Shown here: positions 4,876 through 61,926 of the stretch, in pieces
Layout: each line of letters begins with the position of its first letter
How positions within the stretch are numbered: position 1 is the stretch's first letter
DNA from: Nitrosopumilus sp.
GTDB taxonomy: Archaea; Thermoproteota; Nitrososphaeria; Nitrososphaerales; Nitrosopumilaceae
Length of the DNA: 64,000 nucleotides
Assembly (NCBI GenBank): GCA_965205675.1
Contig: OZ242186.1
Coordinates: forward strand, 1,947,362-2,011,361
Reading direction: 5' to 3'
The notes under the pieces: generated by a model
Databases searched by the model: none
What the model saw: only the letters and a program-made list of their open reading frames with translations
Told to the model about the DNA's origin: nothing
Position numbers and translations under genes: made by a program

Positions 4876-4983
4876 TTGGATAAGTATTAGAAAAAGAAGA
4901 AAAAATTTAAGGAATTTCTATTTTCATAAAAGAGGTAAGGCTTTTATGCTAGAGAACAAAGTTGCAAAACAAGTGAACAATTA

Positions 4984-5229: not shown

Positions 5230-5232
5230 TTA

Positions 5233-45684: not shown

Positions 45685-46077
45685 ATGGTAAAAAAGAAAG
45701 AAGATGAAATTCCAGAATGGGTTACAGATGAAATTCAGAATGCCAAATTTAAAAAGCCTGAAAAACAAAAAAAATCAGGCTATATTTTAGAGTTCTATTA
45801 TGAAGATAATAAAATAGATGTACAGTTGTATGATCCTGTAGAAGATGGACGACATATAGTAACTATGGATGTTCCAAAAAATATTAAAATGGATGATTTA
45901 CTAAAAGGTGAAGTCTATGAATTTGTGTTTGATCAACACAAAGCACCATTAAGTAAAAAAGCATCAGAGTTTCTTGAAAAAGAAAAAGAAATTATCATGA
46001 AAGCAATCTATCAATTTGACTTAAAATCATTAGAATTGTTAGATGTAGGCTCTAATGAATCTACAGAGGAAGATTAA
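45685..46077 (+). CDS. Hypothetical protein
   Basis: 130-aa ORF in compact core context. Confidence 0.6.
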   Translation: MVKKKEDEIPEWVTDEIQNAKFKKPEKQKKSGYILEFYYEDNKIDVQLYDPVEDGRHIVTMDVPKNIKMDDLLKGEVYEFVFDQHKAPLSKKASEFLEKEKEIIMKAIYQFDLKSLELLDVGSNESTEED

Positions 46078-46871
46078 TTTTTCATAGTATCTAATTGTTT
46101 TTTGAAAGCTTTTCCTAATATTGGATTAATAAGATAAGGAAATGTATTTTTCATCCATACGACACCTCGAACTACAGATGGAACTATAATTTCCAGTCTT
46201 GAAGAGTTTGCTGCTTTTAGGATTGCTTTTGCAACAGTTTGGGAGCTAAGTGATGTCGGAGAGAACTTTGGTATTTTTTTAAATGAAGGATGATCAAAGA
46301 AATTGGTTCTTACCATAATTGGACTAACAACAGTAATTCCAACTCCTGTATTGTATAATTCATGTTTTAGTCCTTCTGAGAATCCTAACATTGCAAATTT
46401 TGACGCACAATACGAAGCAATTCCAGGTAAACCAAAGCTTGCTGCCACAGAGGCAACATTAACAATATGTCCTGATTTTTTATCTAGCATTGATGGAAGA
46501 AAGTTTTTGATGCAATAAATCATTCCAAAATAATTAGTTTTCATCTGAGATTCTATTTGATCAACATTAAGACTAGATACAGAACCATAAATTGCAAAAC
46601 CAGCATTATTCACTAAAATATCAACTGAATCAAATTTTTCTAAAACTATTTTTGACATTTCTTTTACTTGATCTTTCTTAGATACATCACATTTACACAC
46701 CAATACTGTTACGTTGAATTTTTTTAATTCATCTGCAACTTTTTCAAGCTTTTCTTGTGTTCTTGAAACTAAAACTATGTTAGCACCTCTCTTTGCAAAT
46801 TCTATTGCTGAATCTCTACCAATTCCTGATGATGCACCGGTAATTAGAATAACTTTGTTTTTAAAATCCAT
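46074..46871 (-). CDS. Short-chain dehydrogenase/reductase
   Basis: TGASSGIG, NNAG, YCASK. Confidence 0.92.
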   Translation of the reverse strand: MDFKNKVILITGASSGIGRDSAIEFAKRGANIVLVSRTQEKLEKVADELKKFNVTVLVCKCDVSKKDQVKEMSKIVLEKFDSVDILVNNAGFAIYGSVSSLNVDQIESQMKTNYFGMIYCIKNFLPSMLDKKSGHIVNVASVAASFGLPGIASYCASKFAMLGFSEGLKHELYNTGVGITVVSPIMVRTNFFDHPSFKKIPKFSPTSLSSQTVAKAILKAANSSRLEIIVPSVVRGVVWMKNTFPYLINPILGKAFKKQLDTMKN

Positions 46872-47103
46872 AAATTAAAAAAATTATCTAAAGATAAAGT
46901 GGTTTCTATTCGATAAATAGTGCATAGAAACAACTGTTTCACGTCAATTTCTAAATTTTCAAATTTTTTAATAATTTCATTATTGAAAAATTTGGGTCAA
47001 TTTTGTACATAATTCAATTTTCATATTTTCTGAAATATAGTATGATATTGATGATAAGTAGGGAGTAAATTTAAGGAATTGTTAAAAAATTTCAATAAAT
47101 TTT

Positions 47104-48010
47104 GGTGATTGTAAACCTATTACCCCCAAACTAATTTTATGTAATTATTGGAAAAAACTATCAATATCATTGAGTTATCCAAAATAGTTTCAGATAAATC
47201 AACATCATTAAAATTTCTGTGTAAAAGATTCAACAGCACAAGTTCTGTATGTTGTCCCAAGTGTGATTCTCCAAGATATTATCTGATGAGCAGAGGGAAT
47301 TTGAGATGCAGTAAATGTAAGACAAACTACAAACCATTCTCAGATACACAGTTTGGTATTATCAATATTGATTATCCAAAATGGTTGGTTCTAATCAAAC
47401 TATTTGATCTTGGGATTAGTGCAAGACGTGCAGCAAAAGAAGTTGGTGTTAGTTATCCTACCGCATTGCATTCTTTTGACACCATGAGATTCTCAATACT
47501 TGAAGAACAATCCAAAACAGATGATGTTCTAAAGGGTCAGATTGAGGCTGATGAGGCCTATTTTGGAGGAAAAAGAAAGGGAAATCGTGGCAGAGGATCT
47601 AAAAACAAAACTATTGTATTTGGAATTTTAGAGAGAAATGGAAAAGTTCATGTTGAGATTGTAAAGAACGTAAAGGCCAAGACACTTCTTACAAGTACTA
47701 TCAAGAAAGTAAAGAAAGGAAGTATTGTGTATACGGACAAGTGGAGAGGATACAATTCGTTAATTTTCAATGGTTACAAGCATCTCTCAATAGACCACAG
47801 CAAGATGTTTGGAAAAGATGATGTGTACATAAATGGAATAGAAGGATTTTGGAGTTTTGCAAAAGAGAACATGGCAAAGCATCATGGTGTCAGTCCAGGT
47901 AAATTCTTGTTGTACATCAAAGAAATGGAATGGAGATACAACAACAGAGATGAAGATACTTTCTCATTATTGCTTGATTATATGTTGGGGGTAAATAATT
48001 GATAATCACC
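47104..48010 (+). mobile_element. IS1595-family element, apparently intact (transposase 47148-48002)
   Basis: TIRs ggtgatt...tacccccaa / ttgggggta...aatcacc; 8-bp TSD TAAATTTT; Zn finger, EADEAY, YTD, NGIEGFWS, E..WRYN. Confidence 0.93.
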
Positions 48011-48081
48011 TAAATTTTTTTAATCAAGTCAGTAAGGATTAGTCATATTGCTTATAACACTAAATCTAACAAGGGATAGAG

Positions 48082-48708
48082 ATGGAAAGAAAAAACGTTT
48101 TTGATTATTTTTTATATGAATTAGAACAATTTACAGAATTAGATTTAGAGACTTTAAAAAAAGTTGCAGAGCTAATTAATCAAAAAGGAGAGCATGTGTC
48201 TTTTCGTGAATTGGGTGATCTATCTGGTTTTGATGTATTAAATGGTCAAGCAGAAGGATTACTACAAATTTTAACAGGTATTGTTCATCGTGAATTAGTT
48301 ATAGATAAAACATTTGATGAAGAATTAGAAAAATCTAAATTAAAAGATAAAGAAAAAATCAAAGCATTTTTTGAATTTCTATCTGATAAAGGAAAAAAAA
48401 GTTTGGATGTAAGATATTTTATAGAAAGAAGTAATGTTGGAGATCCTGTTTTAGAAGATATAGAGCAGAATACTTTTCTTAAAGAAATTTTTGATGATGA
48501 TAAAAATTTGATATGTTATTTACCTATCATTCGTTTAAAATTTACTTTTGTAAGAGATGATAAACCTAGTATTAGATATGGTTATTTCCCAAAAGAACAA
48601 CTAAAGAATATGATCGATAGTTTACAAGAAATTTATGATGATAGTGCAAAATCAATAGAGAGATATAAAAACGTAAGAGATACATCATTGGAGATAGTTG
48701 GTGAATAA
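48082..48708 (+). CDS. Hypothetical protein, putative COMMD-like
   Basis: 208 aa; helical N-domain plus P.LEDI...PIIRL.F...EQLKNMIDSL pattern. Confidence 0.5.
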   Translation: MERKNVFDYFLYELEQFTELDLETLKKVAELINQKGEHVSFRELGDLSGFDVLNGQAEGLLQILTGIVHRELVIDKTFDEELEKSKLKDKEKIKAFFEFLSDKGKKSLDVRYFIERSNVGDPVLEDIEQNTFLKEIFDDDKNLICYLPIIRLKFTFVRDDKPSIRYGYFPKEQLKNMIDSLQEIYDDSAKSIERYKNVRDTSLEIVGE

Positions 48709-49453
48709 AATGAGTACGACTAGACATTTTTCAAAATATCGTAGGGGGACTAAATTATCATATCGAAATGTACCAGAAGTTTCAGCTCGAATTAAACTTA
48801 ATCAGCTTGAACGTTTTCAAGTAGAATTAGAAAATCAGAGTAGTTTTAGAAATAGAAAATTAGATGAAGGGATAATTGAAAAAACAAAATCCATGGGATA
48901 TCTTGTAGAAGTATTTGGTAAAAAACACAAACAAGATGATATTTACACCAAAGTAGTTGATGAACTTGGCGTTCCAAGACCAACTGTAAGAAGAGTTGCA
49001 AGAGATCTAAGATTATCATTGCATGAAAAAATTAATCGTATTCAAACAATGTATTCACAAAAACAATTAGCAGAATTGCTTTCCCATGTTGAGAAAAATG
49101 ATTTTAATGCAATTTTACAAAATATGCGAGATATCAAAGGTAAAGAATTAGACATCATAGTAGGTTTTTGTGATAATTTAGAAAATGTGTTTAATATTGA
49201 AAGATTGACGATGGAGCCATCATTACAGAAAATCAAAATTGAAAATTATCAGAGAAATTTATTTGAGATTAAAAAAATAGCAAATCAACTAAAAAAAGAT
49301 CCAGACAACCAAGAAATGCAGAAAGAACTAACAAAATATTTGAAAGATTTGGAAAGAAAATTGGAAAGTAGGGCAGCATTATCAGGAATTATGAATGAAT
49401 ATGGCTATACCGAAAAGCAATTAGAAAAAGAAATGGCAGAATCCCAAATTTAA
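48698..49453 (+). CDS. Hypothetical HTH / coiled-coil protein
   Basis: VVDELGVPRPTVRRVARDL reads as an HTH; helical C-terminus. Confidence 0.55.
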   Translation: MVNKMSTTRHFSKYRRGTKLSYRNVPEVSARIKLNQLERFQVELENQSSFRNRKLDEGIIEKTKSMGYLVEVFGKKHKQDDIYTKVVDELGVPRPTVRRVARDLRLSLHEKINRIQTMYSQKQLAELLSHVEKNDFNAILQNMRDIKGKELDIIVGFCDNLENVFNIERLTMEPSLQKIKIENYQRNLFEIKKIANQLKKDPDNQEMQKELTKYLKDLERKLESRAALSGIMNEYGYTEKQLEKEMAESQI

Positions 49454-49505
49454 TAATAAAAATGGACCCAGTTGGTATTTGTAAAAGAAATAATCCAAAA
49501 AAGTA

Positions 49506-50048
49506 GTGGAAAAAAATGAAACTCATTATTTTTATTGGCCATTGGAAGCAGGATTTACTTACATTACAATTTTAGGAAGAAAATTTCCAATTTTTCCAAT
49601 AAAAAAAGATGATTATGAACCAATAAAAACCTCAGAATGGAAGGGTAAAAAAATTGTGTTAAGTAGATTTCATTATGATATTTTTTTGTATTTTAATAAT
49701 CTAGAATTAGAAAATGAAAAACCAATAGTAGATTTTTTGCTTGGAAGTCATTCCCCTATGGTATATGTAAAAAAAGGATCAGATATTACAATAAATAATA
49801 AAGTCAATTGGGACGATATGGAAGTTGAGGGTTTAGATTTTTTTCAAGCACTTTACATGATGTATAAATTAATTTTAAAAGGAGTGATAAAAAAAGAAAT
49901 TTGTGAAACCATTGGATATGATGTTATCCATGAAGAACTTGATAGTGAAATTGAGTTAGAACCTTCATCAATGAAAGCATTACTTATTTTTGGAAAATAT
50001 GAAGAACCAGAAGCAATTGAAAATACAGGATACAAATTATTTTCTTAA
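49506..50048 (+). CDS. Hypothetical protein
   Basis: 180-aa ORF, no recognised motif. Confidence 0.55.
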   Translation: MEKNETHYFYWPLEAGFTYITILGRKFPIFPIKKDDYEPIKTSEWKGKKIVLSRFHYDIFLYFNNLELENEKPIVDFLLGSHSPMVYVKKGSDITINNKVNWDDMEVEGLDFFQALYMMYKLILKGVIKKEICETIGYDVIHEELDSEIELEPSSMKALLIFGKYEEPEAIENTGYKLFS

Positions 50049-50081
50049 TACTCTATATACAACATATATCAAATCTACATC

Positions 50082-50225
50082 ATGGTCAAAACCCTTCGAA
50101 TTTCAGACGAAAATCACACAGAAATGCTCAAAATTCAAGGCCAAATCCAGGCTAAATCAGGTGAATTTACATCAATGGATGATGTTATTGTAGAATTGAT
50201 AAAATCATTTAAAAAAAGAAAATAA
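50082..50225 (+). CDS. 47-aa RHH/antitoxin-like DNA-binding protein
   Basis: Hand-read MVKTLRISDENH..ML.....SMDDVIVELI. Confidence 0.65.
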   Translation: MVKTLRISDENHTEMLKIQGQIQAKSGEFTSMDDVIVELIKSFKKRK

Positions 50226-50375
50226 TTTTTCTAGTTTAGATTTTATAATTAACATTTTATTTTAATTTGTTTTTGATTTTAAAATTAAAATCGATTTTTT
50301 GATCATATAACATAGATCATATCGTTCATTATTTTTTACTATAGTCAGGTTATTTGGTAGTTTTAAGATTTTGGC

Positions 50376-50516
50376 ATGAACATTGAACTTGACAAAAACA
50401 CAATAGAACAATTAACAAATCTCGGAAATGTTTTGCAAACTTACGATGATGTTATATTGAAATTGATAAAACATGTTGAAACATGTGATAAATTCTGGAA
50501 TGATATGGAATGGTAA
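50376..50516 (+). CDS. 46-aa RHH-like protein
   Basis: Hand-read MNIELDKNTIEQL...QTYDDVILKLI. Confidence 0.6.
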   Translation: MNIELDKNTIEQLTNLGNVLQTYDDVILKLIKHVETCDKFWNDMEW

Positions 50517-50671
50517 CTATAATCACACCACTTCTATTTGAGAATAATTTGATAATTTCATTATCAAGAGATTGGATAATTCAATTTGATAAAATTCCCC
50601 AATTCATAGTTAAAGTGAATTCCAAAAATAGACTAGTTATTGAATCCCTAGAAGGAGTTGAAAGTAAATGA
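50510..50671 (+). CDS. 53-aa AbrB-like small protein
   Basis: Hand-read; overlaps previous stop; paralogue of 56752-56943. Confidence 0.5.
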   Translation: MVTIITPLLFENNLIISLSRDWIIQFDKIPQFIVKVNSKNRLVIESLEGVESK

Positions 50672-50803
50672 TTGATCATAGAAAAAATATCATATCATAC
50701 CGTATTTTCAGTGAATATAAAAAATATTTTTTAAAAATAATTATTATTATTATTAACTCCAAAAGTTCGAGTAATCAATTTGGTAAATATGAGATGATAT
50801 GAT

Positions 50804-51055
50804 ATGAAAAAAGATCCGAGTTTAAAAGTAAATAATCAAAAATATAACGCAAAGAAGTTTCTAGATTTAGTTAGAGAAAGGAAAGACATTCACAAGTATG
50901 AGTTAATGAGAGCAATAGACATTTCAGAATCAACGTATGAGAAATTAAAACCATACATGGAGTATTGGTATGGAGATAAGATATTTTATGAAAAATCTAC
51001 AAAGATGTGGTCATGGGAATTAGATAGAGACGGAACTGGTGTGAAGGCTACATGA
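50804..51055 (+). CDS. Small winged-HTH protein
   Basis: KYELMRAIDISESTYEKL followed by a beta wing. Confidence 0.55.
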   Translation: MKKDPSLKVNNQKYNAKKFLDLVRERKDIHKYELMRAIDISESTYEKLKPYMEYWYGDKIFYEKSTKMWSWELDRDGTGVKAT

Positions 51056-51091
51056 TCATTTTACGTTCATTTCATTCATTCCATTTGAGCG

Positions 51092-51514
51092 GTGATTGTT
51101 TTGCCTAGGAAAGGTTGGGGAAAAGGCACTGATGTTCTTAATGCAGTTTCAGACTGTATGGTTAGACGATTAACCACAAAAGAGGCATTATCACGCCTAA
51201 AATCACTAGATTTTCCTATGAGTGAGGCTAAATTCCGTAGAATAAAGCGCCATATTCATGAATCCACTCAAGACAGACTTGATTTTATTGCCTACAAAGA
51301 ATATGCACAATCGCACATTGAAGCAATTGATTCTGTAAAATCTGTAATTAACAGACTGTGGGAGATTTCCAATGAAAGAAAAGGTTCCAGAGATGAGATA
51401 CGTTGTCTAGAGTTAATCCCACAAAACATCAAAGTTCTTGAAGAATTATACGATTCAAATCCAATTGTATCTACTATTTCTGAAAAACTAAGAGTAAAAC
51501 AAAATGTTTCGTAA
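51092..51514 (+). CDS. Putative terminase small subunit (HTH plus helical)
   Basis: Overlaps the start of the terminase large subunit; HTH-like N-terminus. Confidence 0.45.
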   Translation: MIVLPRKGWGKGTDVLNAVSDCMVRRLTTKEALSRLKSLDFPMSEAKFRRIKRHIHESTQDRLDFIAYKEYAQSHIEAIDSVKSVINRLWEISNERKGSRDEIRCLELIPQNIKVLEELYDSNPIVSTISEKLRVKQNVS

Positions 51515-52535
51515 AAAAATTACAGCCATACTAGAACAAAATCAAATGATTCAAAGTATTCCTATCTTATCAGAAGACATCATAACATGGACTACGCAAA
51601 CTAGAAATCTAAAAAATGAACCATTCTCATTTGAAAATAGAGATTATCTACACACAATATATCGAGATGATGCAAAAGAGATCTACATCGTTAAAGGAAG
51701 ACAGACAGAGATTACTGAATTTGCATTAAACTGGTTACTATTTCATCTATCAAAGAATCCTGGAACTGTTGGACTGTACCTTTCTGATAGAGATTCACAT
51801 ACATCAAAATTTTCCAATTTACGATTAAAAAACTGGGCAATAGGGCAAAGTAAGATTCTGCAAAGTTTAGCACCACTAAAAAAACATAGTTCTACTACTC
51901 AACCCTTTGAGAATGGTTCTGTTTTGTATATGCATTCTGCATGGGGAGAGTTTGACCAAGCAAGATCAGTTTCTGCAGACTTTACTGTAGTTGATGAGAT
52001 GCAATCAGTTGATGTAAAAGAAATAGACGTACTACAAGAAGCACTATCTCACTCAAAGTTTGGATATATGATTGGGATTGGAACAGGTTCAGAAGAAGGA
52101 AGTGGATGGCATAAACTTTGGCAGTTAGGAAATCAATGCTCATGGGATGTAAATTCAAAGAAATGGAATGCAAAAAATTCTGAATCTAAAATTCATTCTT
52201 ATCATTTACCTCAAACAATAGTTCCATGGATCTCTTCAGAGGATGTGGAGGACAAGAGAAGAAAGATGACTAGTAGAAGATTTGAAACAGAAGTGATTGG
52301 TGGTTGGTTTAGAGGAGCACAAAAGCCACTCATTGAATCAGACATTCGAGGACTTTTTGATAGGAATTTGAGCCTAACTATGCCTGAAAATATCGATAAA
52401 TCAAGAGGTAAAATCCACATGGGAGTTGATTGGGGTGGAGGACAATCTGCATTTACTGTACCATGGATTTGGCAATGCCTTGATGAGAACATTCCATTAT
52501 TCCAAGTATTAGACGTCTTGCGTAATTATTTCTAG
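51504..52535 (+). pseudogene. Terminase large subunit (GpA-like ATPase), truncated in the nuclease domain
   Basis: VKGRQ Walker A-like, TVVDE Walker B, IGTG, nuclease MGVDWG; last codons come from the MITE. Confidence 0.8.
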
Positions 52536-52650
52536 GCATGAATTTTATTGCAGGATTTTTCAAATTGGTTGAGAAATTTGAATTTTCAGGTATGAATTCT
52601 GTTAAAATACAAAATTTGAGAAAAAATTTCTATAATTACGCAAGTGGTCT
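52511..52650. mobile_element. ~140-bp MITE, copy 2 (inverted relative to copy 1)
   Basis: TIRs agacgtcttgcgtaatta / taattacgcaagtggtct. Confidence 0.9.
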
Positions 52651-52767
52651 AATACTTTCATCTGTATCTTAAGGAGATAGAGTTTTGATTCAACAACAGA
52701 GATGAGAATATCTTTGAAATGTTGGTAAAAATGCTTGTAAAACCTGTTCCAAATGAGAGGTATTACC
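52651..52767 (+). pseudogene. 3' remnant of a second IS1595 transposase
   Basis: YFHLYLKEIEF*FNNRDENIFEML aligns with FLLYIKEMEWRYNNRDEDTFSLL in 47148-48002. Confidence 0.7.
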
Positions 52768-52829
52768 TAAATCATTTACATTTCAAAGAACTAACAATCA
52801 TAAAATAATGGATATTTTTAAGAAAATCA

Positions 52830-53351
52830 TTGAGCATACGAAAAAGAATAGATCAACTGCATTCATATGTTTATGACCTTGAAAAGATTCAAGACGAACA
52901 AAAGGATCACTCAAAACAGGTATCAAAGATTAAAGAAGACCATATAAAAAATCTAACGAATGCAACATCTGCTGCATATGCCGTATTAGATACAATTGAA
53001 CAAAGTAAAATGTTTTTTAAAGAACAGATTGACATAATCAAAAAAATATCTCCACTAATGTCTGAATATTTGGATTATCTTATGGAGGAATTTGAAGCGT
53101 TTCAATTTGATATAAATTATGAACTCCAAGATAGTACCACTACACTTCAACAAAATCATCCAGATGCAATAAAAAAAATGCAAACAGTTGATGTATTAAT
53201 TGAGGAAATTGCAGATTGTTACAATCAACTACATCATACACTAATTATATCATATGATTCCTTTGGTGGAATGCTGAATTTTATAGAAAATATTACACCA
53301 AAAAAGACAAAACAAAAACCAACCAAACAAAGGAAGAAAAATGTCAAATGA
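52830..53351 (+). CDS. Hypothetical all-helical protein
   Basis: 173-aa ORF, heptad-rich, overlaps the hsdM stub. Confidence 0.55.
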   Translation: MSIRKRIDQLHSYVYDLEKIQDEQKDHSKQVSKIKEDHIKNLTNATSAAYAVLDTIEQSKMFFKEQIDIIKKISPLMSEYLDYLMEEFEAFQFDINYELQDSTTTLQQNHPDAIKKMQTVDVLIEEIADCYNQLHHTLIISYDSFGGMLNFIENITPKKTKQKPTKQRKKNVK

Positions 53352-53397
53352 GGCACCAGTCATAGTTCAAAAATTATGGAATTTCTGTAATGTATAG
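53341..53397 (+). pseudogene. hsdM: N-terminal stub of type I R-M methyltransferase HsdM
   Basis: MSNEAPVIVQKLWNFCNV resembles the HsdM start IVQKLWN.CNVLRDDG; ends at the TA where the IS630 relic begins. Confidence 0.6.
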
Positions 53398-53726
53398 CGA
53401 AAAGACAAAGTTCGTGAACTAAATAATTCCAAAACAAAAAACTTTTTGATCAGTTAACCCAACAAAATACATGAACAAGTTAGAATCCCTTGAAGCATCA
53501 TACAAAAAAGAAAATTCAAAAGTTGCAGTAAGAATGTTTGCAGTATTGATGATTCTAAAAGATGGTAAGGAATTAGAACACTGCAAAGACACTGCACAAA
53601 CTGGGTACGAAAATGGGTGAGTCGTTTTGGGGTAGATGGTCTCTACGACCACCCAAGGAGTGGAAGACCAAGAATAATTCCAAAGAAGAAAATGGATTGT
53701 ATAATGTCAAAGGCAATGCTAACTTT
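53393..53726 (+). mobile_element. 5' fragment of an IS630-family element
   Basis: KKE..KVAVRMFAVL ... WVSRFG.DGLYDHPRSGRPR, frameshifted and cut by the IS5 copy. Confidence 0.7.
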
Positions 53727-54799
53727 AGACGTCTTGCGCAATTACAAACAAAACCTCTTCTTTCATTGAATTTAATTTCAAATAATTTCTAATCTTATGG
53801 AATCACAACAAACTCTTGCTTCCATCTTGTCTTGAAATTTACAATTCCACATACGATATCACTTATTGCATCATACCTGCACAATCTATTCCTAAATGTC
53901 TCAAAATTAATCCTAAACTTTTTGATTTGAGAGATAATATGTTCTACTTTTATTCGGATTCTTGACTGTATCTTGTTCCATTCCTTTTGATGTATGGTCA
54001 GTTTTTTTCCTTTCTTTTTCTTGTATGGTAGAATGCTTGTCTGTTCTGGGAAATCTTTTTCCACTCCCAAATACCCCAAGGTCATAAAATATCATCACAT
54101 CTTCGGGCAGTTCTGGATGTCTGATTTTCAGTATCGCATAATCATGTTACCTGGAGAATGTGGAGGTTTGTGGATTATCTCACCTTTCTGGTTTACGGTG
54201 TTTGGTTTTTTATTGTGTGTTTTTTCTTTTTTCCTGAATAGTGAGTCTTTTCTTTTTGTTCTGGGGTCTTGGGATTGGTTGTTCAGCACCATCAGTCATT
54301 GCAATTAATTCAGGAAAGAACAGTTGGAGTTGCTGTACATCATTTATTTTTTTAGAATCAGAGTATAGTTTTGAAGGAATAGGAATTGATTTTCTTACTG
54401 CAGTCTCTAAATATCTGATGTTTCTGTAGACGTTGCTCTGGTCTAATCCAAACAGATATCCTGTCAACTCGCATGTCAGGTACATCCGATAGTAAACAAA
54501 CAACATTACAAGCTGGTCTTCAAGACTCAAATCAAACTTTCGCCCAGCTCCGATACTTCTTTTTCTCTTTGCTTTGGATAGTCTCTTCTTTTCTTCTATA
54601 CGGTGATTCTTTCTGACATCCTTTAGAATCACATCAAACTGTTGCCTAGTCACTCCAGTAAAAGAGAGAAACGATTTTGGCTTTTTTGAGAGTTGCTTGT
54701 ATGTTAACATGAAATGTGTTAGGTTGTTCTTAGCTTTGGATCTTGTTGTGAATGAATTTGTGTAATATGGTAAAATATGTCTAATTGCGCAAGAGGTCT
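53727..54799 (-). mobile_element. IS5-family (HTH_Tnp_4/DDE_Tnp_4-like) element, frameshifted, copy A
   Basis: TIRs agacgtcttgcgcaatta / taattgcgcaagaggtct; near-identical to 62388-63456; DG.E, DLG, RIKVEH. Confidence 0.88.
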
Positions 54800-54864
54800 A
54801 GTATTGATTGTGTTATTGAGTGATTTAGTTTACTAAAAATAATACTTTATTTCATTACAAACAG

Positions 54865-55461
54865 ATGGATACAAAAATGATTGATCATACTAGAGAAATT
54901 ATCATTGATAGTTTAGCTTTCAATATTTTTGATGATCCTGATGCATTTAGAAAAAATACTGATGGAAATCACATTTCTCTTGCATTATTTGAAAATCCAA
55001 AACATTTGAAGGAAACTGCTCTAAAACTATTGCAATTTCATCTTAGAGAATCAAATTGTAAATCTGTCATAGGATTTACTGAAAATGATCCATCTTTGAT
55101 TGTTTTAGCAACACAAGCCAGCCTAAATGAACAATTACCACTTTATCTATATGATTTAGAACATGATGAAGGAGCATTTAGTCAATTTATCAGACCTGAA
55201 ATTGTTCCATGTTCTTTGATAATTCCTTATTCTATTGATGAAAAGTATGTTTTAGAAATAATTGAGATGTTTTCCCAACAAAAAATTCCAATTTCTAAAG
55301 TCATTTCAATAATTGATGAAAATCCATCCAAAACTAATTTTTCAGATAAAGATTTTGAATTTATATCCATTTGTGATTGGAATTCTCTAAAAAATAGAAT
55401 GAATCATTATCAAAACATTACAAAAGAGAAAATGGATCGATTATTGGCAAAGTTTGGCTAA
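54865..55461 (+). CDS. Degenerate PRTase-fold protein
   Basis: LFENP..L, SVIG, KVISIID follow the PyrE layout; PRPP loop reads CSLIIPYSIDE. Confidence 0.5.
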   Translation: MDTKMIDHTREIIIDSLAFNIFDDPDAFRKNTDGNHISLALFENPKHLKETALKLLQFHLRESNCKSVIGFTENDPSLIVLATQASLNEQLPLYLYDLEHDEGAFSQFIRPEIVPCSLIIPYSIDEKYVLEIIEMFSQQKIPISKVISIIDENPSKTNFSDKDFEFISICDWNSLKNRMNHYQNITKEKMDRLLAKFG

Positions 55462-55637
55462 AATGATCAATTCTGTAAAAATTTGAGCCCTTTGAGTCAA
55501 ATGAGTCGGACTTTACCCATTTAGATCATACAGGGTTTTAGAATACAGCAAGTTGATGATGCAAGGCAATCTTGATTATTGTGTCCATAATCGTTTTCTC
55601 TCATTATTACACTTGAAAATTAATAATAATTTTAATA

Positions 55638-56285
55638 TTGACTGGAGGTCTTTTACTCAATGATATGACCATTTCATCTGATTTTAGAACTGATAAACAA
55701 AGACTAGCCGATTTACTAGTGGAAACTAAAGCATTTCAATATTCGCCAGAAAAACCATTTCAATTAGTATCTGGAGCAACCAGTCCATATTATTTTGATC
55801 TAAAATTACTAAATGGACATCCAGAAGGAATCAATGCAGTTGCAAAAGTATTCTATCATTTAATCAAACAATACCCTGATGTAGTATCAGTTGGTGGTTT
55901 AGAATCTGGTTCAATCTCAATTGCAACAGCAATTTCACAACTAAGTTACTTTGAAAATCAAAAAGATCCTTCAAATCCTTTAATCACATCATTCTTTGTG
56001 CGTAAAGCACCAAAGAAACATGGAACTCAAAAATTAATTGAAGGAAGAATTAGTTCCCCAGTAGTTATCATTGAGGATGTAATCACCAGTGGAATGTCTG
56101 CAATAATTGCAATACATGCAGTTGAAGAGATGGGATATGAGTGTAAATCTCTAATGTCTATAATTTTTAGAGGAACTGAAGAACATCGTCAAAAGGTAGA
56201 AAAAGAAAGTACATTACAATATATCTTCCACAAAGATCAGTTCATTGAAGAATACAAAAAGCAATTCAAAGAATTAACTGCATAA
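55638..56285 (+). CDS. pyrE: Orotate phosphoribosyltransferase-like protein
   Basis: F.LVSGATSPYYFD, GGLESG, VRK..K.HGT..LIEG, VIIEDVITSG. Confidence 0.85.
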   Translation: MTGGLLLNDMTISSDFRTDKQRLADLLVETKAFQYSPEKPFQLVSGATSPYYFDLKLLNGHPEGINAVAKVFYHLIKQYPDVVSVGGLESGSISIATAISQLSYFENQKDPSNPLITSFFVRKAPKKHGTQKLIEGRISSPVVIIEDVITSGMSAIIAIHAVEEMGYECKSLMSIIFRGTEEHRQKVEKESTLQYIFHKDQFIEEYKKQFKELTA

Positions 56286-56660
56286 TCAGTGTCCTAAAAA
56301 ATAAGGGAAAGGTTGTTTTAATTTCTAAAAAATCAAAACTCCGTAATTGATTCCGTATTTTGACTTTAATGATGCTAAACCTTCACTTTCAAAGAAATAA
56401 TTGGTAATTTTCACAGATTTTCCAAATTTGAAATATTTCTAACTTTTTTCTTTCCTTGAAATTTATCTTCAACAATGTTTGCCAAAGAATATGATGTAAG
56501 TTTCGTATCAAATTCATCAAAGACAAAGGTTTTTCCATTCCATGAATCAAACGTATACTCAATAATAAAAATTCGTCACCCTATTTTGAACTCGATTTAC
56601 GTACATTGTAGATTCAAGTTTAAATTTCAGGAATTAGTATAATTTGGAAGATTTTGGGTC

Positions 56661-56755
56661 ATGAATATTTGTTAGACAGTATACGATAGCGTTATTACAA
56701 AGATCTTGGATCATGTATAGAAAAATGCGATAGATTTCGAGAGGATGTCGATTGA
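56661..56755 (+). pseudogene. Eroded paralogue of the RHH-like gene 50376-50516
   Basis: YDSVITKILDHV/EKCDRF versus YDDVILKLIKHVETCDKF; shared upstream aagattttgg..catgaa.att. Confidence 0.55.
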
Positions 56756-56943
56756 AAAGATTCCCCAAGACTTCTGCAGTTATTTTTGAGAATTTTGCAA
56801 TTGTTGCACTGGACAAGAAATGGTTTGAGATTAATGATTTACGGTTTGATGTGTTCATTGATAGTTCTAGCCGACTGGTATTGCGAACAACAGAACCATG
56901 CCAGGAGAAAATAAATGCCATACAAGGAACTCGTCAGTGTTGA
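56752..56943 (+). CDS. AbrB-like small protein, paralogue of 50510-50671
   Basis: FENFAIVALDKKW...F.V.IDS..RLV versus FENNLIISLSRDW...F.V.VNS..RLV. Confidence 0.5.
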   Translation: MKRFPKTSAVIFENFAIVALDKKWFEINDLRFDVFIDSSSRLVLRTTEPCQEKINAIQGTRQC

Positions 56944-57135
56944 GGGTAACTTTACCGATGTTGATATCTAGTCAGACTTCAGTCATTGGTCAAGCGATCT
57001 TGCAACGTTAGGTTTTTTGATCATCTGAGAATTCTGAAATCTAAATGAGCGGTAAGGAAGGAAAATATTTTTGGAGAGGTGTAAAACATGACATTTCTCC
57101 GTTCTCATTTATTCTTCCATAGAATATTAGCGAGG

Positions 57136-57483
57136 TCATTTCTTCATAACCTTATATTTGCTATAAAAGAAGGATCGGTGATTCTTAATACAAGATTTGA
57201 TTTTACTACCTAATTTCAAACCCAATTTTATAAAATTATCATCAATTCCAAATTTCTCAAAGATTCGCCTCAAAAAATAACTTCTAGCAAATGATATTGA
57301 GGCATAAACAAAAGTAATTGCCATATTTGCAACTAGTGGATCTTCTTGAATCCAACCCACAGACAGTGGTAAAACTATAATTCCTAATCCATATCCTATC
57401 GGATATCCACCAAATGAGTTGACAAATGCCTCTGAAAGACTCTTTTTGTGAGAATCTGGTTTATTTTCTTTTATTGTTGACAT
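57136..57483 (-). CDS. Small membrane protein of phage/MGE type (DUF7220-like)
   Basis: SHKKSLSEAFVN..GGY.IG, S.ARSY.LRRIF. Confidence 0.6.
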   Translation of the reverse strand: MSTIKENKPDSHKKSLSEAFVNSFGGYPIGYGLGIIVLPLSVGWIQEDPLVANMAITFVYASISFARSYFLRRIFEKFGIDDNFIKLGLKLGSKIKSCIKNHRSFFYSKYKVMKK

Positions 57484-57677
57484 TTACAAGTCCCCTTTAA
57501 TTTTTTGATTGCACATTTAGAACAATAAACATAATCTCTAAAAGAAAAAAAACCATAACATTCAAGTCTTCCTGAAAACATCCTATGTTCTCTTTTTAGA
57601 ACACATCGAACATCACAAAAAAATATTATACAACAAATAAGATAATTTGGTTCAATACCTTGCCAAAAAGTGTTCAT
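57471..57677 (-). CDS. Cys-rich small protein
   Basis: Several CxxC-like motifs; coupled by overlap. Confidence 0.45.
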   Translation of the reverse strand: MNTFWQGIEPNYLICCIIFFCDVRCVLKREHRMFSGRLECYGFFSFRDYVYCSKCAIKKLKGTCKCQQ

Positions 57678-57928
57678 TTCATATCCTCCAAAACATCTTC
57701 AGAAAATGATTTCATTCCAGAATCTTCTCTAGTTTGTTCATGTGATTGAGGAAGATCTGAAATTATCTTTGGTAAATAATACAAAACAACTAGTACAACA
57801 CCGACTAGTGGATTGATTAATCCGAGTAGAATCGTTACACTCCAAAAGAAAATTTTTGTAAATCTATTCATTTTCTTCACGTTCTCCCCATCGATAATGA
57901 CAATCATTGCATTCCCATTTTGGATCAT
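57674..57928 (-). CDS. Small membrane protein (true start may be ~57871)
   Basis: Two hydrophobic segments; overlap coupling. Confidence 0.5.
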   Translation of the reverse strand: MIQNGNAMIVIIDGENVKKMNRFTKIFFWSVTILLGLINPLVGVVLVVLYYLPKIISDLPQSHEQTREDSGMKSFSEDVLEDMK

Positions 57929-58058
57929 GGTCTGTAATTAAACACCCACCCAGAATGATCTCTTGTTTTTCTAATAATTTCTCAAGTGATTCTAGATCTC
58001 CAGGATATCCCCAAAGAATTTCAGCAATCCATTCTTTCTTACAGTGAGGACATTTCAA
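57864..58058 (-). CDS. Small Zn-finger protein
   Basis: CPHC...ILWGYP...ILGGC...PKWECNDC..RWG. Confidence 0.7.
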   Translation of the reverse strand: MKCPHCKKEWIAEILWGYPGDLESLEKLLEKQEIILGGCLITDHDPKWECNDCHYRWGEREENE

Positions 58059-58191
58059 TTTCTAATACTCCAATATTTATGCAGATAATTGTACTTCCAA
58101 GAAAAATAGTCAGAAATATTACTACAAAGTATACATGCTTGTTGCTCTTCCCATGACTGAAATCGATTTGTATTCTTATGATGGATTTCAT
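58039..58191 (-). CDS. 50-aa single-TM microprotein
   Basis: Hand-read MKSIIRIQIDFSHGKSNKHVYFVVIFLTIFLGSTIICINIGVLEIEMSSL. Confidence 0.4.
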   Translation of the reverse strand: MKSIIRIQIDFSHGKSNKHVYFVVIFLTIFLGSTIICINIGVLEIEMSSL

Positions 58192-58203
58192 AAATTTTAA
58201 ACC

Positions 58204-58428
58204 TCAATCTCTTTTCCCCCAAATTTTCTCTGAATTTTCTTGGTTTTTATGCTCTCTAGCCCCAAATTCTTTGTTTGAGTTCTCAGTATCTGATGATAGT
58301 TCTCTAGTCACAGTAACCATAGAGTTTCCAAAATCCTGAACTGTCTTGTTGAATGTGTCAATATTCTTGTTGATGTTCTTTATGTTAATTTTTTCAAGAA
58401 GAATAATAACCAGTTCTTTTTTATTCAT
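58204..58428 (-). CDS. Small hypothetical protein
   Basis: ATGA overlap with the upstream ORF. Confidence 0.5.
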   Translation of the reverse strand: MNKKELVIILLEKINIKNINKNIDTFNKTVQDFGNSMVTVTRELSSDTENSNKEFGAREHKNQENSEKIWGKRD

Positions 58429-58706
58429 ATAGTTATACTCCTCATTTTCTTAATGTTGTAAATCAAAACAATACATATGATAATGATTCTTAAGATTACT
58501 AACACTACATAATGTGATTGAGTGATTTCTGTAATTACTTCCAATTTTTTCCCTCCAGTCTTTAATTCTTCTCTATCTTCTGCAACTCGTTCTTCAAATA
58601 TTCTAACTGTTCCTTTATGATATTGTAAATGAATTTCTGCTTGTTGCAAATCTTCTTCTTGGTATGATTTTACAAGAAACTTTGGAAGAATTCTAGTTAG
58701 TTTCAA
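58425..58706 (-). CDS. Small coiled-coil protein with C-terminal TM
   Basis: Overlap coupling at both ends. Confidence 0.5.
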   Translation of the reverse strand: MKLTRILPKFLVKSYQEEDLQQAEIHLQYHKGTVRIFEERVAEDREELKTGGKKLEVITEITQSHYVVLVILRIIIICIVLIYNIKKMRSITI

Positions 58707-58813
58707 TTTTTATTCTCCTTTTGATATCCTTCTAATTTTTCTTTTAGATTTGCAAAAGAGAATACAATACTATCTTCATGTGTAAAATTTTTTGATCTAA
58801 ATAGAATAGTCAT
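58703..58813 (-). CDS. 36-aa microprotein
   Basis: Hand-read MTILFRSKNFTHEDSIVFSFANLKEKLEGYQKENKN; 4-nt overlaps at both ends. Confidence 0.4.
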   Translation of the reverse strand: MTILFRSKNFTHEDSIVFSFANLKEKLEGYQKENKN

Positions 58814-58905
58814 GATCTAGCTCCATAAATCATTGGTTCATCTCTTTCATCTTCAAATTCTCGAATAATTCTTGGATACATTGTAGGTTTCATTGTAGGT
58901 TTCAT
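58810..58905 (-). CDS. 31-aa microprotein
   Basis: Hand-read MKPTMKPTMYPRIIREFEDERDEPMIYGARS; begins just after the PIN stop. Confidence 0.4.
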   Translation of the reverse strand: MKPTMKPTMYPRIIREFEDERDEPMIYGARS

Positions 58906-58906
58906 T

Positions 58907-59326
58907 TTAAATTCCTCTCACCATTGATGGATGAAATCCTACAACCCCAAGAAACTCACAGGTCTTGAGAAGCATTCTATCAAATGTTACCAAAACAAAG
59001 TCTTTCGATTGGCATAGACTAAGGATTTTATTATCTCCATTATGACAAATTTGAAATTGATTTGTTATTTCATTTGCAGTTGTTTTATTTTGTTCATCAA
59101 TCTCTGAGAGTTCAATTGGTCTTCCAAGAATTTTTGAGATTTTTTCAATGGTTATTTTTGGAGATAGTCCTCTGACTCTTTGTACTTCTTGTAGTACAAC
59201 ATCACATAGGACTATTGAAAGTGATTTACCTCTAAGATGTGATTTGAGTTTAGATGCTACTTTTGGTTTCTCTATAATATCAATTATGACACAAGAATCA
59301 AATGCTATGTTTTGTGTTTGATTCAT
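58907..59326 (-). CDS. PIN-domain ribonuclease (VapC-like)
   Basis: FDSCVII, VLQEV, GDNKIL, LVTFD..L acidic tetrad. Confidence 0.85.
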   Translation of the reverse strand: MNQTQNIAFDSCVIIDIIEKPKVASKLKSHLRGKSLSIVLCDVVLQEVQRVRGLSPKITIEKISKILGRPIELSEIDEQNKTTANEITNQFQICHNGDNKILSLCQSKDFVLVTFDRMLLKTCEFLGVVGFHPSMVRGI

Positions 59327-59354
59327 AGAATAACTTGGACATCTAAATTATTAT

Positions 59355-59390
59355 ATAGTATGACAATACTAAGCATACTAAACATACTAT
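59355..59390. promoter_or_regulatory. Putative operator in the divergent PIN/CARF promoter
   Basis: ATAGTATG...CATACTAT inverted repeat plus three 9-nt tandem units containing ATACTA. Confidence 0.45.
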
Positions 59391-59391
59391 T

Positions 59392-60138
59392 ATGGCTAAA
59401 AATGAGAATTTACGTGTACATATTGCCCCTGTAGGCTATGAAATTGATAGAATTGTACTTTCCGCAAAGAAGATGAGGGCAGATAAGGTATGTTTACTTG
59501 TTCATGAAAATCCTAGTGTTGATAAGGCAATTTTATTTTATAAAAAAATCTCAAAACAATTACAAAAACAAAACATAGAGATCACAAAAGAATATCATGA
59601 TAGATTAGATCTTTTCAAGATAATAAAATCAGTTAAAAAAATTATTGAAAAAGAAAAAGGGAATATCATTTATGTTAATTTAGCATCAGGTAGTAAAATA
59701 CAATCAATAGCATGTATGATGGCATGTATGATGTTTAATGATGATGAAAATGTTCATCCATTTTATGTAGAAGCAAAAGACTATCTAGGATTTTCAGGAA
59801 AACCAATCTCAATTGGTATTAAAGACATCCAAAATGTTCCTCCATATTCAATAAAAATCCCAGAAGAGAAATTGATTCAGGCTTTAGAAATTATTAAAGA
59901 AAATAATGGTAAATTAACAAAAAAAGAAATGGCACAGATTGCAGAAGAAAATAAAATAATTATAGTTAATGCACAAGAGAAAAATCATTCTATGGCAAGA
60001 TTTGCAAGTTTGGATAAAAATATTATTCAGCCACTTGAAGAACAATGGAAATTCATTAAGGTTAAAAAGATTGGAAGAAATCGTTGGATTAATCTTACAC
60101 AAGAAGGAGAGAACGCTATAGAATTTTTAATTTCATAA
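59392..60138 (+). CDS. CARF-like + winged-HTH regulator (DUF6293/Csa3-like)
   Basis: VHIAPVGYEIDRI, YVNLASGSK, FYV.A..Y, C-terminal wHTH ending GRNRWINLTQEG. Confidence 0.75.
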   Translation: MAKNENLRVHIAPVGYEIDRIVLSAKKMRADKVCLLVHENPSVDKAILFYKKISKQLQKQNIEITKEYHDRLDLFKIIKSVKKIIEKEKGNIIYVNLASGSKIQSIACMMACMMFNDDENVHPFYVEAKDYLGFSGKPISIGIKDIQNVPPYSIKIPEEKLIQALEIIKENNGKLTKKEMAQIAEENKIIIVNAQEKNHSMARFASLDKNIIQPLEEQWKFIKVKKIGRNRWINLTQEGENAIEFLIS

Positions 60139-60159
60139 AAATAAAATACTAGATAAAAC

Positions 60160-60830
60160 AAGTGAGAAAACAGTTGAAGTAAATGTATTGCATGATCTAG
60201 CAACTTGCTTAGAAAAGAATTATAAAATTACAATTATTGTTCCAGCACAAAATGAAGAATTAGATTTTGGTTTTGATGGAATTTTTTCAAATCTGCCATC
60301 AGGGAGAATTTTAACCTTGTAATTTAAGAGACCAGAAGAGTGAAATGGTGCTGAGGCTAATTTTCATATTTTTATGCCTTAATTACACACGCTTAGGTTT
60401 AACTTCCCAAACAGAAATGATGCATTTTTAGAAATATTGAAAAAGCAAACAACAATGTCAATATGGAATATAGGACAGAAACACCAATGCATATGTTATT
60501 TGAAATGCCATCATTAACCAAAGTGGAATACTATTTGGCATCTAGAATAGAAAACTGATTTTCTAAAGTATGAATTTACGTAAGACTTGGTCATAAACTA
60601 GTAATTATTTCAATATTGGATATTTCTGAACTAAAAATTGGTGCACTAATAGAGGGTCCAAAGTGGCCAGATCCCAGTTGAAATTAAAAAGATAGAAGAT
60701 TATGGAGGCGATGTCAACATTATTGATTCACGAATACCTGCAGGAATACATGTTGATGTAATTTTATCAAAAGAAAAGCTAGCACATATTAGTCTTGAAA
60801 CAATTGATTGTGATTTTTCTAAAATTTGAA
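60160..60830 (+). pseudogene. Eroded gene remnant(s), possibly a PD-(D/E)XK nuclease
   Basis: SEKTVE.N...P.Q.EE..FGFD...L*FKRP fragments with stops. Confidence 0.35.
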
Positions 60831-60909
60831 CAAGCATTTATGCTGGAATGTGGTTAATTGGATAATGTACATTTGATATATTATATATATAGTGTATATC
60901 ACATGGTTT

Positions 60910-61926
60910 CTATACAGATTTAGGTTTAGATATTTTACTCAGGGCTAATTTGACTAAAAGTAACCACGTAATTACTATTGGAACATAATATGTTGCAATT
61001 CTCCAACCAATTACTGCATCCCAAGCTACAATTCCCTCACTTATACTAAAGTCAAATGGATTAAGATTGTTAAGATATGCTATAATTCCAAATTCAGCTA
61101 AACCTGAACCGCCTATGGTAATTGGCAAGTTACCAATTGCATTTGCACCCATAACTGCCATGATTGAATCAAATACACTAATCACATATTCAGTTCCCAT
61201 TGCTATGATCATAAACGATATTCCATAAAATGCCCAAGAAACAAATGAGATTAGAAAAGATACTGTAAAAATTTTCTTGGATTCAGGTGTATGTATATTT
61301 TCTCTAATCATAGTACATGTTTCCTCCATCCAAGAATTAGTTTGATTAATAATTTTGATGCCTTTTTCTTTTCCTAATTTTTTAATGAGATTTGCAAGTG
61401 AATTTGGTATCTGAAATGTATGTTTAGAAGACAAGAAAAACATTACCATCCACAAAGATGTTATTACAATACTAGTAGCTAAAATAACTATTCCAACAAC
61501 ATATGCTCCATTCAATAACGCAATTATTCCAGCCATTATAGACAAAAGACCTGCTGCAAGTACTTCAGTTACAATATCCATAAGTGCGATCCATGTAGCC
61601 TTTGAAAGTTTTATACCTTTTTTCTTCAAATAATAAATTACAATAAATTCAGCTCCAATAAACATTGGAGTTGTAAATTTGATAAATTCACTACCAACTC
61701 TAACACCAACTAATTTGAAAAATGAATCAGTATTACCAAGATATTTTCTTGTTATATATGCAAACTTTATTCCTTGTAATCCAAGCTTTATCATCATTGC
61801 AATAATTGCACCAACAAATGGAAATAATCCAATAGCTAAAACATCTTCAATTTGAACATCAAATTGAATGACAATGATAAAAATAGGGATTAAGGTAATA
61901 GGGATAGCTACTAGTCTCCAGTTCAT
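60910..61926 (-). CDS. UPF0104 / lysylphosphatidylglycerol synthase TM (flippase-like)
   Basis: TPMFIGAE, PITIGGSGLAE, WRIATYY, multi-TM. Confidence 0.85.
   Translation of the reverse strand: MNWRLVAIPITLIPIFIIVIQFDVQIEDVLAIGLFPFVGAIIAMMIKLGLQGIKFAYITRKYLGNTDSFFKLVGVRVGSEFIKFTTPMFIGAEFIVIYYLKKKGIKLSKATWIALMDIVTEVLAAGLLSIMAGIIALLNGAYVVGIVILATSIVITSLWMVMFFLSSKHTFQIPNSLANLIKKLGKEKGIKIINQTNSWMEETCTMIRENIHTPESKKIFTVSFLISFVSWAFYGISFMIIAMGTEYVISVFDSIMAVMGANAIGNLPITIGGSGLAEFGIIAYLNNLNPFDFSISEGIVAWDAVIGWRIATYYVPIVITWLLLVKLALSKISKPKSV

Follow-up and report, generated by a model that had tools for sequence, protein, structure and literature searches.

The protein encoded at 48082-48708 of the window (the whole analysed stretch of 64,000 nucleotides, at the high end of the single 2.01-Mb contig of a Nitrosopumilus genome) is supported by structure prediction as sharing the two-domain fold of eukaryotic COMMD proteins. 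Its gene is the first of a tight three-gene cassette on a variable island, and this cassette moves horizontally between genera. The complete reading, in which a COMMD-like protein is carried as mobile cargo at the head of an operon and forms a ring platform for its partners, is in our judgement likely. Proteins of this kind are already known, so that the proposal, although correct, adds no new kind; the novelty lies in the lineage and in the mobile three-gene context.

The window has a G+C content of ~30%. The genome encodes archaeal amoA (E value 1.9e-116, above the Pfam cut-off) and the host is thus an ammonia-oxidising archaeon, which bears out the archaeal origin given in a preliminary description of this DNA. 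The open reading frame (ORF) named there is present just as stated, with an ATG start and 208 amino acids (aa), and all the stretches quoted from its product are found: TFDEELEKSKLKDKEKIKAFFEFL at residues 77-100, DPVLEDIE at 121-128, YLPIIRLKFTF at 146-156 and IRYGYFPKEQLKNMIDSLQEIY at 164-185.

48082..48708, forward strand: COMMD-like protein, with an HN-like helical domain at residues 1-117 (nt 48082-48432) and a COMM domain at residues 121-196 (nt 48442-48669)

Predicted fold and structural relatives

Given two sequences, AlphaFold2 returned a model with a predicted local distance difference test score (pLDDT) of 65.9, in which a helical N-half followed by strand-strand-strand-helix was already visible. 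With an alignment of 59 sequences (A2), the mean pLDDT was 94.6 and the predicted template modelling score (pTM) 0.82, and the five models ranged from 93.7 to 94.6. Alignment A2 takes in 59 of 66 proteins; it leaves out seven shorter or partial matches of 99-175 aa (P0053, P0055, P0057-P0059, P0061 and P0067) and also P0063 (275 aa), whose match began only at profile position 81. In the resulting model, the N-domain is all-helical, with helices between residues 6 and 117, and the C-half consists of strands at 123-137, 143-158 and 161-169 and a helix at 171-196, with a pLDDT of 87-98 per 10-residue block. The division into a helical N-half and a C-half of three strands and a helix, first proposed from the letters alone, therefore holds in a high-confidence model.

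A search of this model with Foldseek against 350,542 PDB chains placed COMMD or COMMD-like chains at ranks 1-23 without exception, and the ten best matches of the two-sequence model were also all COMMD or COMMD-like chains. The top match is MBK5214510, an octameric COMMD-like protein of a Flavobacteriaceae bacterium (9q6c_A, E 1e-7; 9q6a, E 4.7e-7). Human COMMD8, 9, 4, 10, 2 and 3 appear in the list at E 2.3e-6 to 4.3e-5, with COMMD8 at 2.3e-6, and the isolated COMM domain of Commd9 (6bp6_A) is matched with a TM(target) of 0.80 and a root-mean-square deviation (rmsd) of 2.6 Å over 79 columns. The first matches outside this group are the chlamydial protein Cpn0803 (3q9d_A, rank 24, E 0.065) and then ParB (E 0.076).

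VIA-align, an all-against-all aligner that is independent of Foldseek, was run over 48,161 representative chains. Its top six are all COMMD or COMMD-like, with Z scores of 8.9-7.9, and the next fold after this block is Pur-alpha, at Z 5.1. Four of the alignments run across both domains: 9q6a_A over 188 residues (model residues 3-207), 8f2r_C over 183, 8p0w_J over 179 and 8f2u_H over 176. The likeness of the N-domain to the HN domain of COMMD chains rests on these whole-chain alignments (176-188 residues, Z 8.9-7.9). Two further rows cover the COMM domain only (6bp6_B, Z 8.1, and 8esd_S, Z 8.0, with an rmsd of 2.6-2.7 Å). Z scores under 8 are common with this aligner, a caution that applies to single rows; the assignment carries weight because a block of one family stands above a gap of 3 Z units and because two methods agree. 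The topology of three strands and a helix is thus present, and COMMD chains come first among its structural matches.

The order of the VIA-align results also bears on a different explanation, that the protein is a single-stranded nucleic-acid binder of the Whirly/Pur-alpha/PC4 type that merely resembles a COMM domain and binds the DNA or RNA of the mobile element together with a neighbouring helix-turn-helix (HTH) protein. Pur-alpha, PC4 and Sub1 chains come next after the COMMD rows (Z 5.1-3.6), a Borrelia Pur-alpha is in the Foldseek list of the two-sequence model, the next gene downstream (gene 2) bears an HTH-like motif, and the main text of the published survey notes, for Chlamydiales and Haloarchaea, genes for DNA handling in the vicinity of COMMD-like genes (PMC13392464). 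Pur-alpha does have a related strand-and-helix dimerising unit. However, the Pur-alpha, PC4 and Sub1 matches span only residues ~120-200 and lie 3 Z units under the COMMD rows (5.1 as against 7.9-8.9), whereas the N-domain too aligns with COMMD proteins, over 176-188 residues in four full-length chains. In the model, three strands follow an HN domain, whereas Pur-alpha has four strands per repeat and lacks an HN domain according to the same main text (PMC13392464). Moreover, profile matches favour COMMD8, COMMD10 and COMMD3, with one single-stranded-DNA-binding protein (4psl) at E 0.31. We therefore regard a nucleic-acid binder of this type as very unlikely.

Cpn0803 raises the possibility of a CT584/Cpn0803-like protein, which would have the same two-domain outline and would form hexamers through its helical N-domain rather than rings of COMM domains. 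Apart from its Foldseek rank, Cpn0803 is matched by VIA-align over 139 residues at Z 4.4. This is a weaker match than the 7.9-8.9 of the COMMD block, and the protein lies below every COMMD or COMMD-like chain in both searches. Its assembly is different and the CT584 family is exclusive to Chlamydiales, as the survey's main text has it (PMC13392464), which makes this explanation scarcely credible and leaves the COMMD fold as the preferred assignment.

Sequence family and its links to the COMM domain

Among 5.8 billion proteins, a word-indexed search recovered a single relative, with 43% identity. A full HMMER scan of 1.84 billion representatives with the resulting two-sequence profile gave 65 homologues at E≤1e-3, 43 at ≤1e-10 and 6 at ≤1e-30, nearly all of 205-225 aa and matched end to end. 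Since there are 65 homologues, mostly of this length, and a confident model, the ORF is not a chance one. The genome itself holds one COMMD-like match (E≤10).

The family is divergent throughout. Only M1, L100 and P148 are conserved at 90% in A2, the mean column identity is 29%, and the N- and C-halves vary equally (mean entropy 2.69 and 2.68 bits). Pro148, which lies within the second strand, is nearly invariant (98% of 59 rows). The absence of the Trp typical of eukaryotic COMM domains, pointed out in the preliminary description, is real: residues 121-196 contain none, and a Trp is present in this region in 5 of the 59 family members.

The best match of the family profile among PDB sequences is human COMMD8 (E 0.026), with profile positions 152-192 aligned in register with its Pro-led second strand, third strand and helix, so that the proline opening strand 2 and the Leu-rich helix coincide. 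A profile of the COMM domain only (A6, 13 sequences taken from the window and the loci described below) gave COMMD8 at E 0.03, COMMD10 at 0.17 and COMMD3 at 1.2 among 11 rows. Of all Pfam families, COMM_domain is the one matched most often in the alignment (by 8 of the 59 members, best E 0.0015); no other is matched by more than two. At the level of sequence, the relation to the COMM domain is thus weak yet consistent, and the sub-threshold values agree with the identity of less than 20% to COMMD proteins given for the prokaryotic group in the main text of the survey (PMC13392464).

Direct scans of the protein gave just a tRNA-synthetase region in Pfam (E 0.072), nothing below 0.07 in PHROGs and nothing usable in PADLOC. 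An odorant-binding protein, the sole phmmer match among PDB sequences (E 0.0068), is not usable as an identity.

A three-gene cassette

The gene had been placed at the head of an operon, and the spacing bears this out. The ATG of the next gene (48710) lies one base after the COMMD-like stop codon (48706-48708), and a spacer of 8 bases separates the end of gene 2 (49453) from the ATG of gene 3 (49462).

48710..49453, forward strand: cassette gene 2, 247 aa, with a basic N-terminal tail, an HTH-like motif and a helical, coiled-coil-like C-half
49462..50048, forward strand: cassette gene 3, of an orphan family, with a 180-aa ORF from GTG 49506
50082..50225, forward strand: small ORF of 47 aa after the cassette, with a Pfam VAPB_antitox match at E 0.036 and a ribbon-helix-helix by eye

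A start of gene 2 at TTG 48698, which gives the 251-aa version in the ORF list, is disfavoured by the database gene call (247 aa) and by the 1-base spacing. The HTH-like motif occupies ~25 residues (~78-103 of the 251-aa ORF, 48920-49010). It recurs with ~75% identity over ~44 residues in a dozen otherwise unrelated metagenome proteins of 143-254 aa, a behaviour like that of a shuffled module. Library matches of gene 2 are weak (HTH_23, E 0.11; phrog_1729, E 8.6e-4) and the ESM Atlas gave no usable match for it. Two types of gene 2 occur among the loci. Both have, by eye, an N-terminal tail rich in Arg and Lys and a C-half that is helical, and only the copy in the window carries the HTH-like motif.

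Gene 3 has no match in Pfam, in PDB sequences (by profile) or in PADLOC, and the ESM Atlas returned unnamed clusters only. Eight sequences of the family share 15 invariant residues (H7, F9, Y10, W11, E14, D36, E38, P39, R54, H56, Y57, F77, H82, P84 and Y138), which include three His, one Asp, two Glu and one Arg. In the window, the first 14 codons of its homologues (MDPVGICKRNNPKK) lie in another frame, at 49462-49503, ending at a TAG, and the apparent shift falls at a run of six A (49497-49502). Contigs from four public runs were compared; three of these runs come from one study, probably on the source sample, and their contigs show identical letters at the A run, which confirms the letters only. 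The 47-aa ORF that follows is only a candidate for membership of the cassette.

Neighbourhoods of the homologues

The surroundings of ten matches in other genomes were compared over 12-18.5 kb, with all ORFs clustered. Counting as strong those loci with a COMMD-like match at E≤1e-40 (ten, with the window), six of the ten have the COMMD-like gene followed by a gene for 196-251 aa and then by a member of the gene 3 family, so that a survey of homologue neighbourhoods, as first suggested, does recover a cassette led by this gene. These six are the window, L022, L024, L029, L030 and the short contig L008. Their spacers are short or overlapping, and L030 and L008 have an orthologue of gene 2. L009 is unscorable, as its contig ends 500 bp downstream. 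Seen from the other side, the gene 3 profile matches 7 of 401 family-sample genomes, in six of which gene 3 follows a COMMD-like gene. The association of the two is frequent both ways, and is not obligate.

More distant loci follow a similar plan with other partners. In L026 and L027, the COMMD-like gene lacks part of the N-terminal domain (hhalign probability 98.9%) and precedes genes for two small proteins that, by eye, contain hydrophobic stretches of a membrane-like kind. A full-length distant COMMD-like relative (hhalign probability 95.1%) is found in L028 (8929-10413) and L031 (8427-9881), two genera with 71% DNA identity at these loci; an acidic 150-aa protein and then a retropepsin-like aspartic protease (Asp_protease_2, E 1.4e-11; PADLOC candidate PDC-M08B, E 9.2e-6) come after it. 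In hhalign comparisons, no link was found between gene 3 and the retropepsin-like protein, nor among the partner genes of the cassette variants. A COMMD-like gene that comes first, followed by two small changeable genes, is a recurring plan; with about a dozen loci from related genomes, it is a pattern and not a statistic. The COMMD-like gene of L026 is fused behind a DNA-methylase fragment in one ORF (9126-9953, reverse strand; N6_N4_Mtase, E 2.3e-26, residues 34-128; COMMD-like C-terminal half, residues 144-274), which is probably a deletion product.

The company of the genes was scanned with Pfam (E≤1e-5) in ORFs of at least 80 aa within 7.5 kb (24 and 139 ORFs). Around the loci, there are IS66, IS5-type, IS3-type and IS110 transposases, a tyrosine integrase, two type IIG-like restriction-modification giants, an HNH protein, a HicA toxin and a GHKL-ATPase protein, and housekeeping genes also occur nearby.

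Distribution and horizontal transfer

Matches to A2 were sought in samples of genomes at three ranks, in which not being found differs from being absent. In the class sample, 17 of 401 genomes match at E≤1e-3 and 12 (the genome of the window, G000, included) at ≤1e-7; in the family sample, 11 of 401 match at E≤1e-10 including G000, that is, 10 of the 400 others. Three of 401 genomes in the phylum sample match at E≤1e-5, all of the same family, and none of its 344 genomes of other families do so at this threshold. Ammonia-oxidising archaea are the only group in which the sequence family was found here, and its presence among them is patchy. Two intact full-length matches are present in 2 of the 17 class-sample genomes, G304 and G249 (one strong and one distant in the latter), while G072 has, as its second match, a short piece interrupted by a stop codon.

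In a maximum-likelihood tree with 42 rows (P0002-P0030, and 13 from genomes), genus g1 is represented by six rows, which fall at five or more separate positions with good support; near-identical pairs link different genera. The DNA gives the same picture. The cassettes of G304 (g1) and G249 (g7) are 98.5% identical over 1743 bp, and those of G072 (g13) and G305 (g1) are 95.1% identical over 1920 bp (raw identities, with genus labels taken from the search tool). The match between G304 and G249 begins 33 bp upstream of the COMMD-like start, and the flanks upstream of this point are unrelated. The cassette moves horizontally between genera. In G304 (L022), an insertion sequence (IS) with a DDE_Tnp_1 transposase (10636-11930) splits gene 3.

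The location of the gene in the window agrees with this mobility. Between the following flanks lie 14.0 kb of variable DNA.

46872..60909, no strand assigned: variable island of 14.0 kb, between the SDR gene and the LPG-synthase-TM gene
46074-46871, reverse strand: SDR flank gene, at one edge of the island
60910-61926, reverse strand: LPG-synthase-TM flank gene, at the other edge
47082..48029, forward strand: IS1595-family element, with a transposase ORF at 47148-48002 (DDE_Tnp_IS1595, E 1.1e-34)

Ten genomes of the same genus have both flank genes on one contig. In seven of them (G101, G114, G268, G580, G262, G159 and G581) these genes are 41-312 bp apart; in the other three, the gap is 2.3 kb (G128), 11.3 kb (G257) and 20.5 kb (G126). 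The term mobile island used in the preliminary description is justified by this synteny, and that of island cargo by the location together with the cassette DNA shared between genera. The SDR/LPG-synthase junction appears to be a recurrent integration hotspot.

The IS1595-family element ends ~50 bp upstream of the COMMD-like start and has an imperfect terminal inverted repeat (47067-47085 and 47999-48017). At least 30 matches, mostly partial, to positions 33-980 of 47050-48081 represent copies or fragments of it in the 2.01-Mb genome. The junction of this element with the gene is spanned by contigs of runs X1-X3 (47985-48967).

Phage-derived DNA is present on the same island, and the gene could instead belong to a decayed provirus, as a structural or packaging-related protein and not as part of an independent cassette. 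A terminase large-subunit fragment lies 2.8 kb downstream (51504-52535; phrog_675, E 3.3e-49), and small DNA-binding-like ORFs stand between it and the cassette. However, terminase or capsid families occur in none of the nine other fetched neighbourhoods of the cassette or its variants (Pfam E≤1e-5). The stretch common to different genera begins 33 bp ahead of the COMMD-like start: for one pair it comprises just the cassette, and for the other it extends ~0.9 kb past the cassette, through an ADH fragment and no virus gene. No match was found in phage records (tblastn), in the IMG/VR pattern scan or among BFVD structures at E≤1e-3. A proviral origin is accordingly highly improbable, and an independently moving cassette remains the preferred account.

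Comparison with known COMMD proteins

Prokaryotic COMMD-like proteins were first described in 2025-26 (Liu, Moody ... Collins, Healy, Nat Commun 2026, PMC13392464; PDB 9q6a, 9q6c). According to the main text of that paper, they form homo-octamers or homo-decamers of COMM-domain dimers, as seen by multi-angle laser light scattering, mass photometry, crystallography and cryo-electron microscopy, and their function is stated there, and for bacteria and archaea in a preprint (10.64898/2026.02.02.703414), to be unknown. The protein described here resembles them in size (~210 aa), in its HN-type helical domain and COMM domain, and in being encoded by one gene per genome (rarely two in the published group), and MBK5214510 is its best whole-protein structural match (Foldseek E 1e-7; VIA-align Z 8.9 over 188 residues). 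It differs in sequence, with 13-15% identity to 9q6a and no HMMER match even at E 10. The genomic context differs as well: here, a small mobile cassette within regions rich in IS elements and restriction genes, and a loose association with gene clusters that resemble type VI secretion system loci in Myxococcota in the main text of the published survey (PMC13392464).

The archaea named in that main text are Methanobacteriota, Halobacteriales, Thermococcus and Asgard. It does not contain Thaumarch-, Nitroso-, Thermoproteota, phage or mobile; a supplement of 111 archaeal proteins lies outside it, and the family may be listed there. That supplementary list aside, no paper was found in the literature searched that joins COMMD with ammonia-oxidising archaea.

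With eukaryotic COMMD1-10 of the Commander/CCC complex (8f2r, 8f2u, 8p0w, 8esd, 6bp6), the protein shares the two-domain architecture, and its COMM domain superposes on that of Commd9 with an rmsd of 2.6 Å over 79-82 residues. In contrast to these proteins, with which it has 10-22% identity, its COMM domain lacks Trp, and its genomic setting has no CCDC22/CCDC93, Retriever or WASH context. Given one COMMD-like gene, it could form at most a homomeric ring.

Possible role

The role proposed here goes beyond the predicted fold, the operon layout, the island location and the horizontal spread documented above. By analogy with the solved relatives, COMM-domain dimers would assemble into a closed ring of 8 or 10 subunits, and the HN domains would lie on its outer side. 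The layout of the genes suggests that this ring would serve passively as an oligomeric platform on which the products of the presumably co-transcribed genes are organised, in the way that the eukaryotic COMMD ring holds CCDC22 and CCDC93. Gene 2 encodes a fast-evolving, basic-tailed helical protein with, in the window, an HTH insert; the product of gene 3 belongs to no known family but is conserved, and its invariant residues include His, Asp and Glu. Judging from the same layout, the module may act in the traffic or conflict between mobile element and host, and not in core metabolism.

Several observations weigh against the complete reading, from fold to role. Whole-chain TM-scores are low (0.33-0.45) and rmsd values high (6.7-16.8 Å), and only the COMM domain superposes tightly; we read this as the result of a different inter-domain angle in the monomer model. 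No sequence match attains a curated threshold, and Pfam COMM_domain (PF07258) is absent for the query itself even at E≤1 and for 51 of the 59 members. The cassette is not obligate: in L002 nothing of the cassette accompanies the COMMD-like gene, after which comes an aldo-keto-reductase-like gene on the opposite strand; L023 and L025 have no member of the partner families downstream, where an unrelated small ORF may or may not be a partner; and G144 has genes 2 and 3 (L034, 2350-3529, reverse strand) with no adjoining COMMD-like gene. The two types of gene 2 show no detectable homology (hhalign probability 0.1%). Gene 3 appears frameshifted at its start, and because of this the local copy may be decaying. 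None of the three cassette genes is matched by a known defence family in PADLOC, and no viral homologue emerged from the phage records, BFVD structures or IMG/VR patterns searched above. Finally, in the published survey no complex of a COMMD-like protein with a neighbour was predicted, by the account in its main text (PMC13392464).

Two of these negative results can be specified. PADLOC-DB 2.0 gave no defence family for genes 1 and 3, and GajB at E 0.0034 only for gene 2. Scans of viral, genome (two scans) and metagenome contigs found no relatives, and, being made with two short peptide patterns, they say little.

A more specific proposal, which we consider rather doubtful, takes the ring as the unchanging component, encoded first, of a modular conflict system (defence, anti-defence or element maintenance) that ammonia-oxidising archaea exchange horizontally and in which the downstream partners are swapped. 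These partners would be the orphan His/Asp/Glu-rich protein with the basic-tailed helical protein in one version, the small membrane pair in another, and the acidic protein with the retropepsin-like protease in a third. If true, this would provide the first function for prokaryotic COMMD-like proteins, and would suggest a prokaryotic precedent for the platform role of the COMMD ring toward CCDC22/CCDC93. The context is tighter than those published: a three-gene unit of ~1.9 kb, with spacers of 1-8 bases, exchanged nearly unchanged between genera. Because of this, partner binding and function are directly testable by co-expression and pull-down, and the family occurs in abundant, partly cultivable ammonia oxidisers.

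Other features of the island

The remaining genes make the island a mosaic hotspot and not one intact element.

50376..50516, forward strand: small ORF of 46 aa, DUF7557-like (PF24434, E 7.6e-5, 22.5 bits against a cut-off of 25)
50804-53351: packaging-module remnant, with an HTH protein, a 140-aa protein, a terminase N-terminal fragment and then a coiled-coil ORF
51504-52535: N-terminal ATPase fragment of the terminase large subunit (343 aa against a 576-position profile)
53795-54710: broken pieces of a DDE_Tnp_4 transposase
58907-60138: PIN-domain protein (E 4.4e-8), divergent from a CARF and winged-helix protein

The remnant at 50804-53351 is that of a tailed-virus packaging module. No cas genes were seen near the CARF protein in ~44-64 kb of the window; the protein itself, with its winged helix, matches HFX_2341_N (E 3e-36) and PADLOC CARF3 (E 2.1e-75). 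The island also holds a phosphoribosyltransferase-like gene and DUF7220, besides the PIN protein. Elsewhere, at the same junction, other insertions are found in G126 (C14, 23269-43808) and G257 (C1, 1488864-1500139), with no COMMD-like match listed. In L034 of G144, a 221-aa ORF near the cassette genes (4576-5241, forward strand) resembles, by eye, a PD-(D/E)xK exonuclease.

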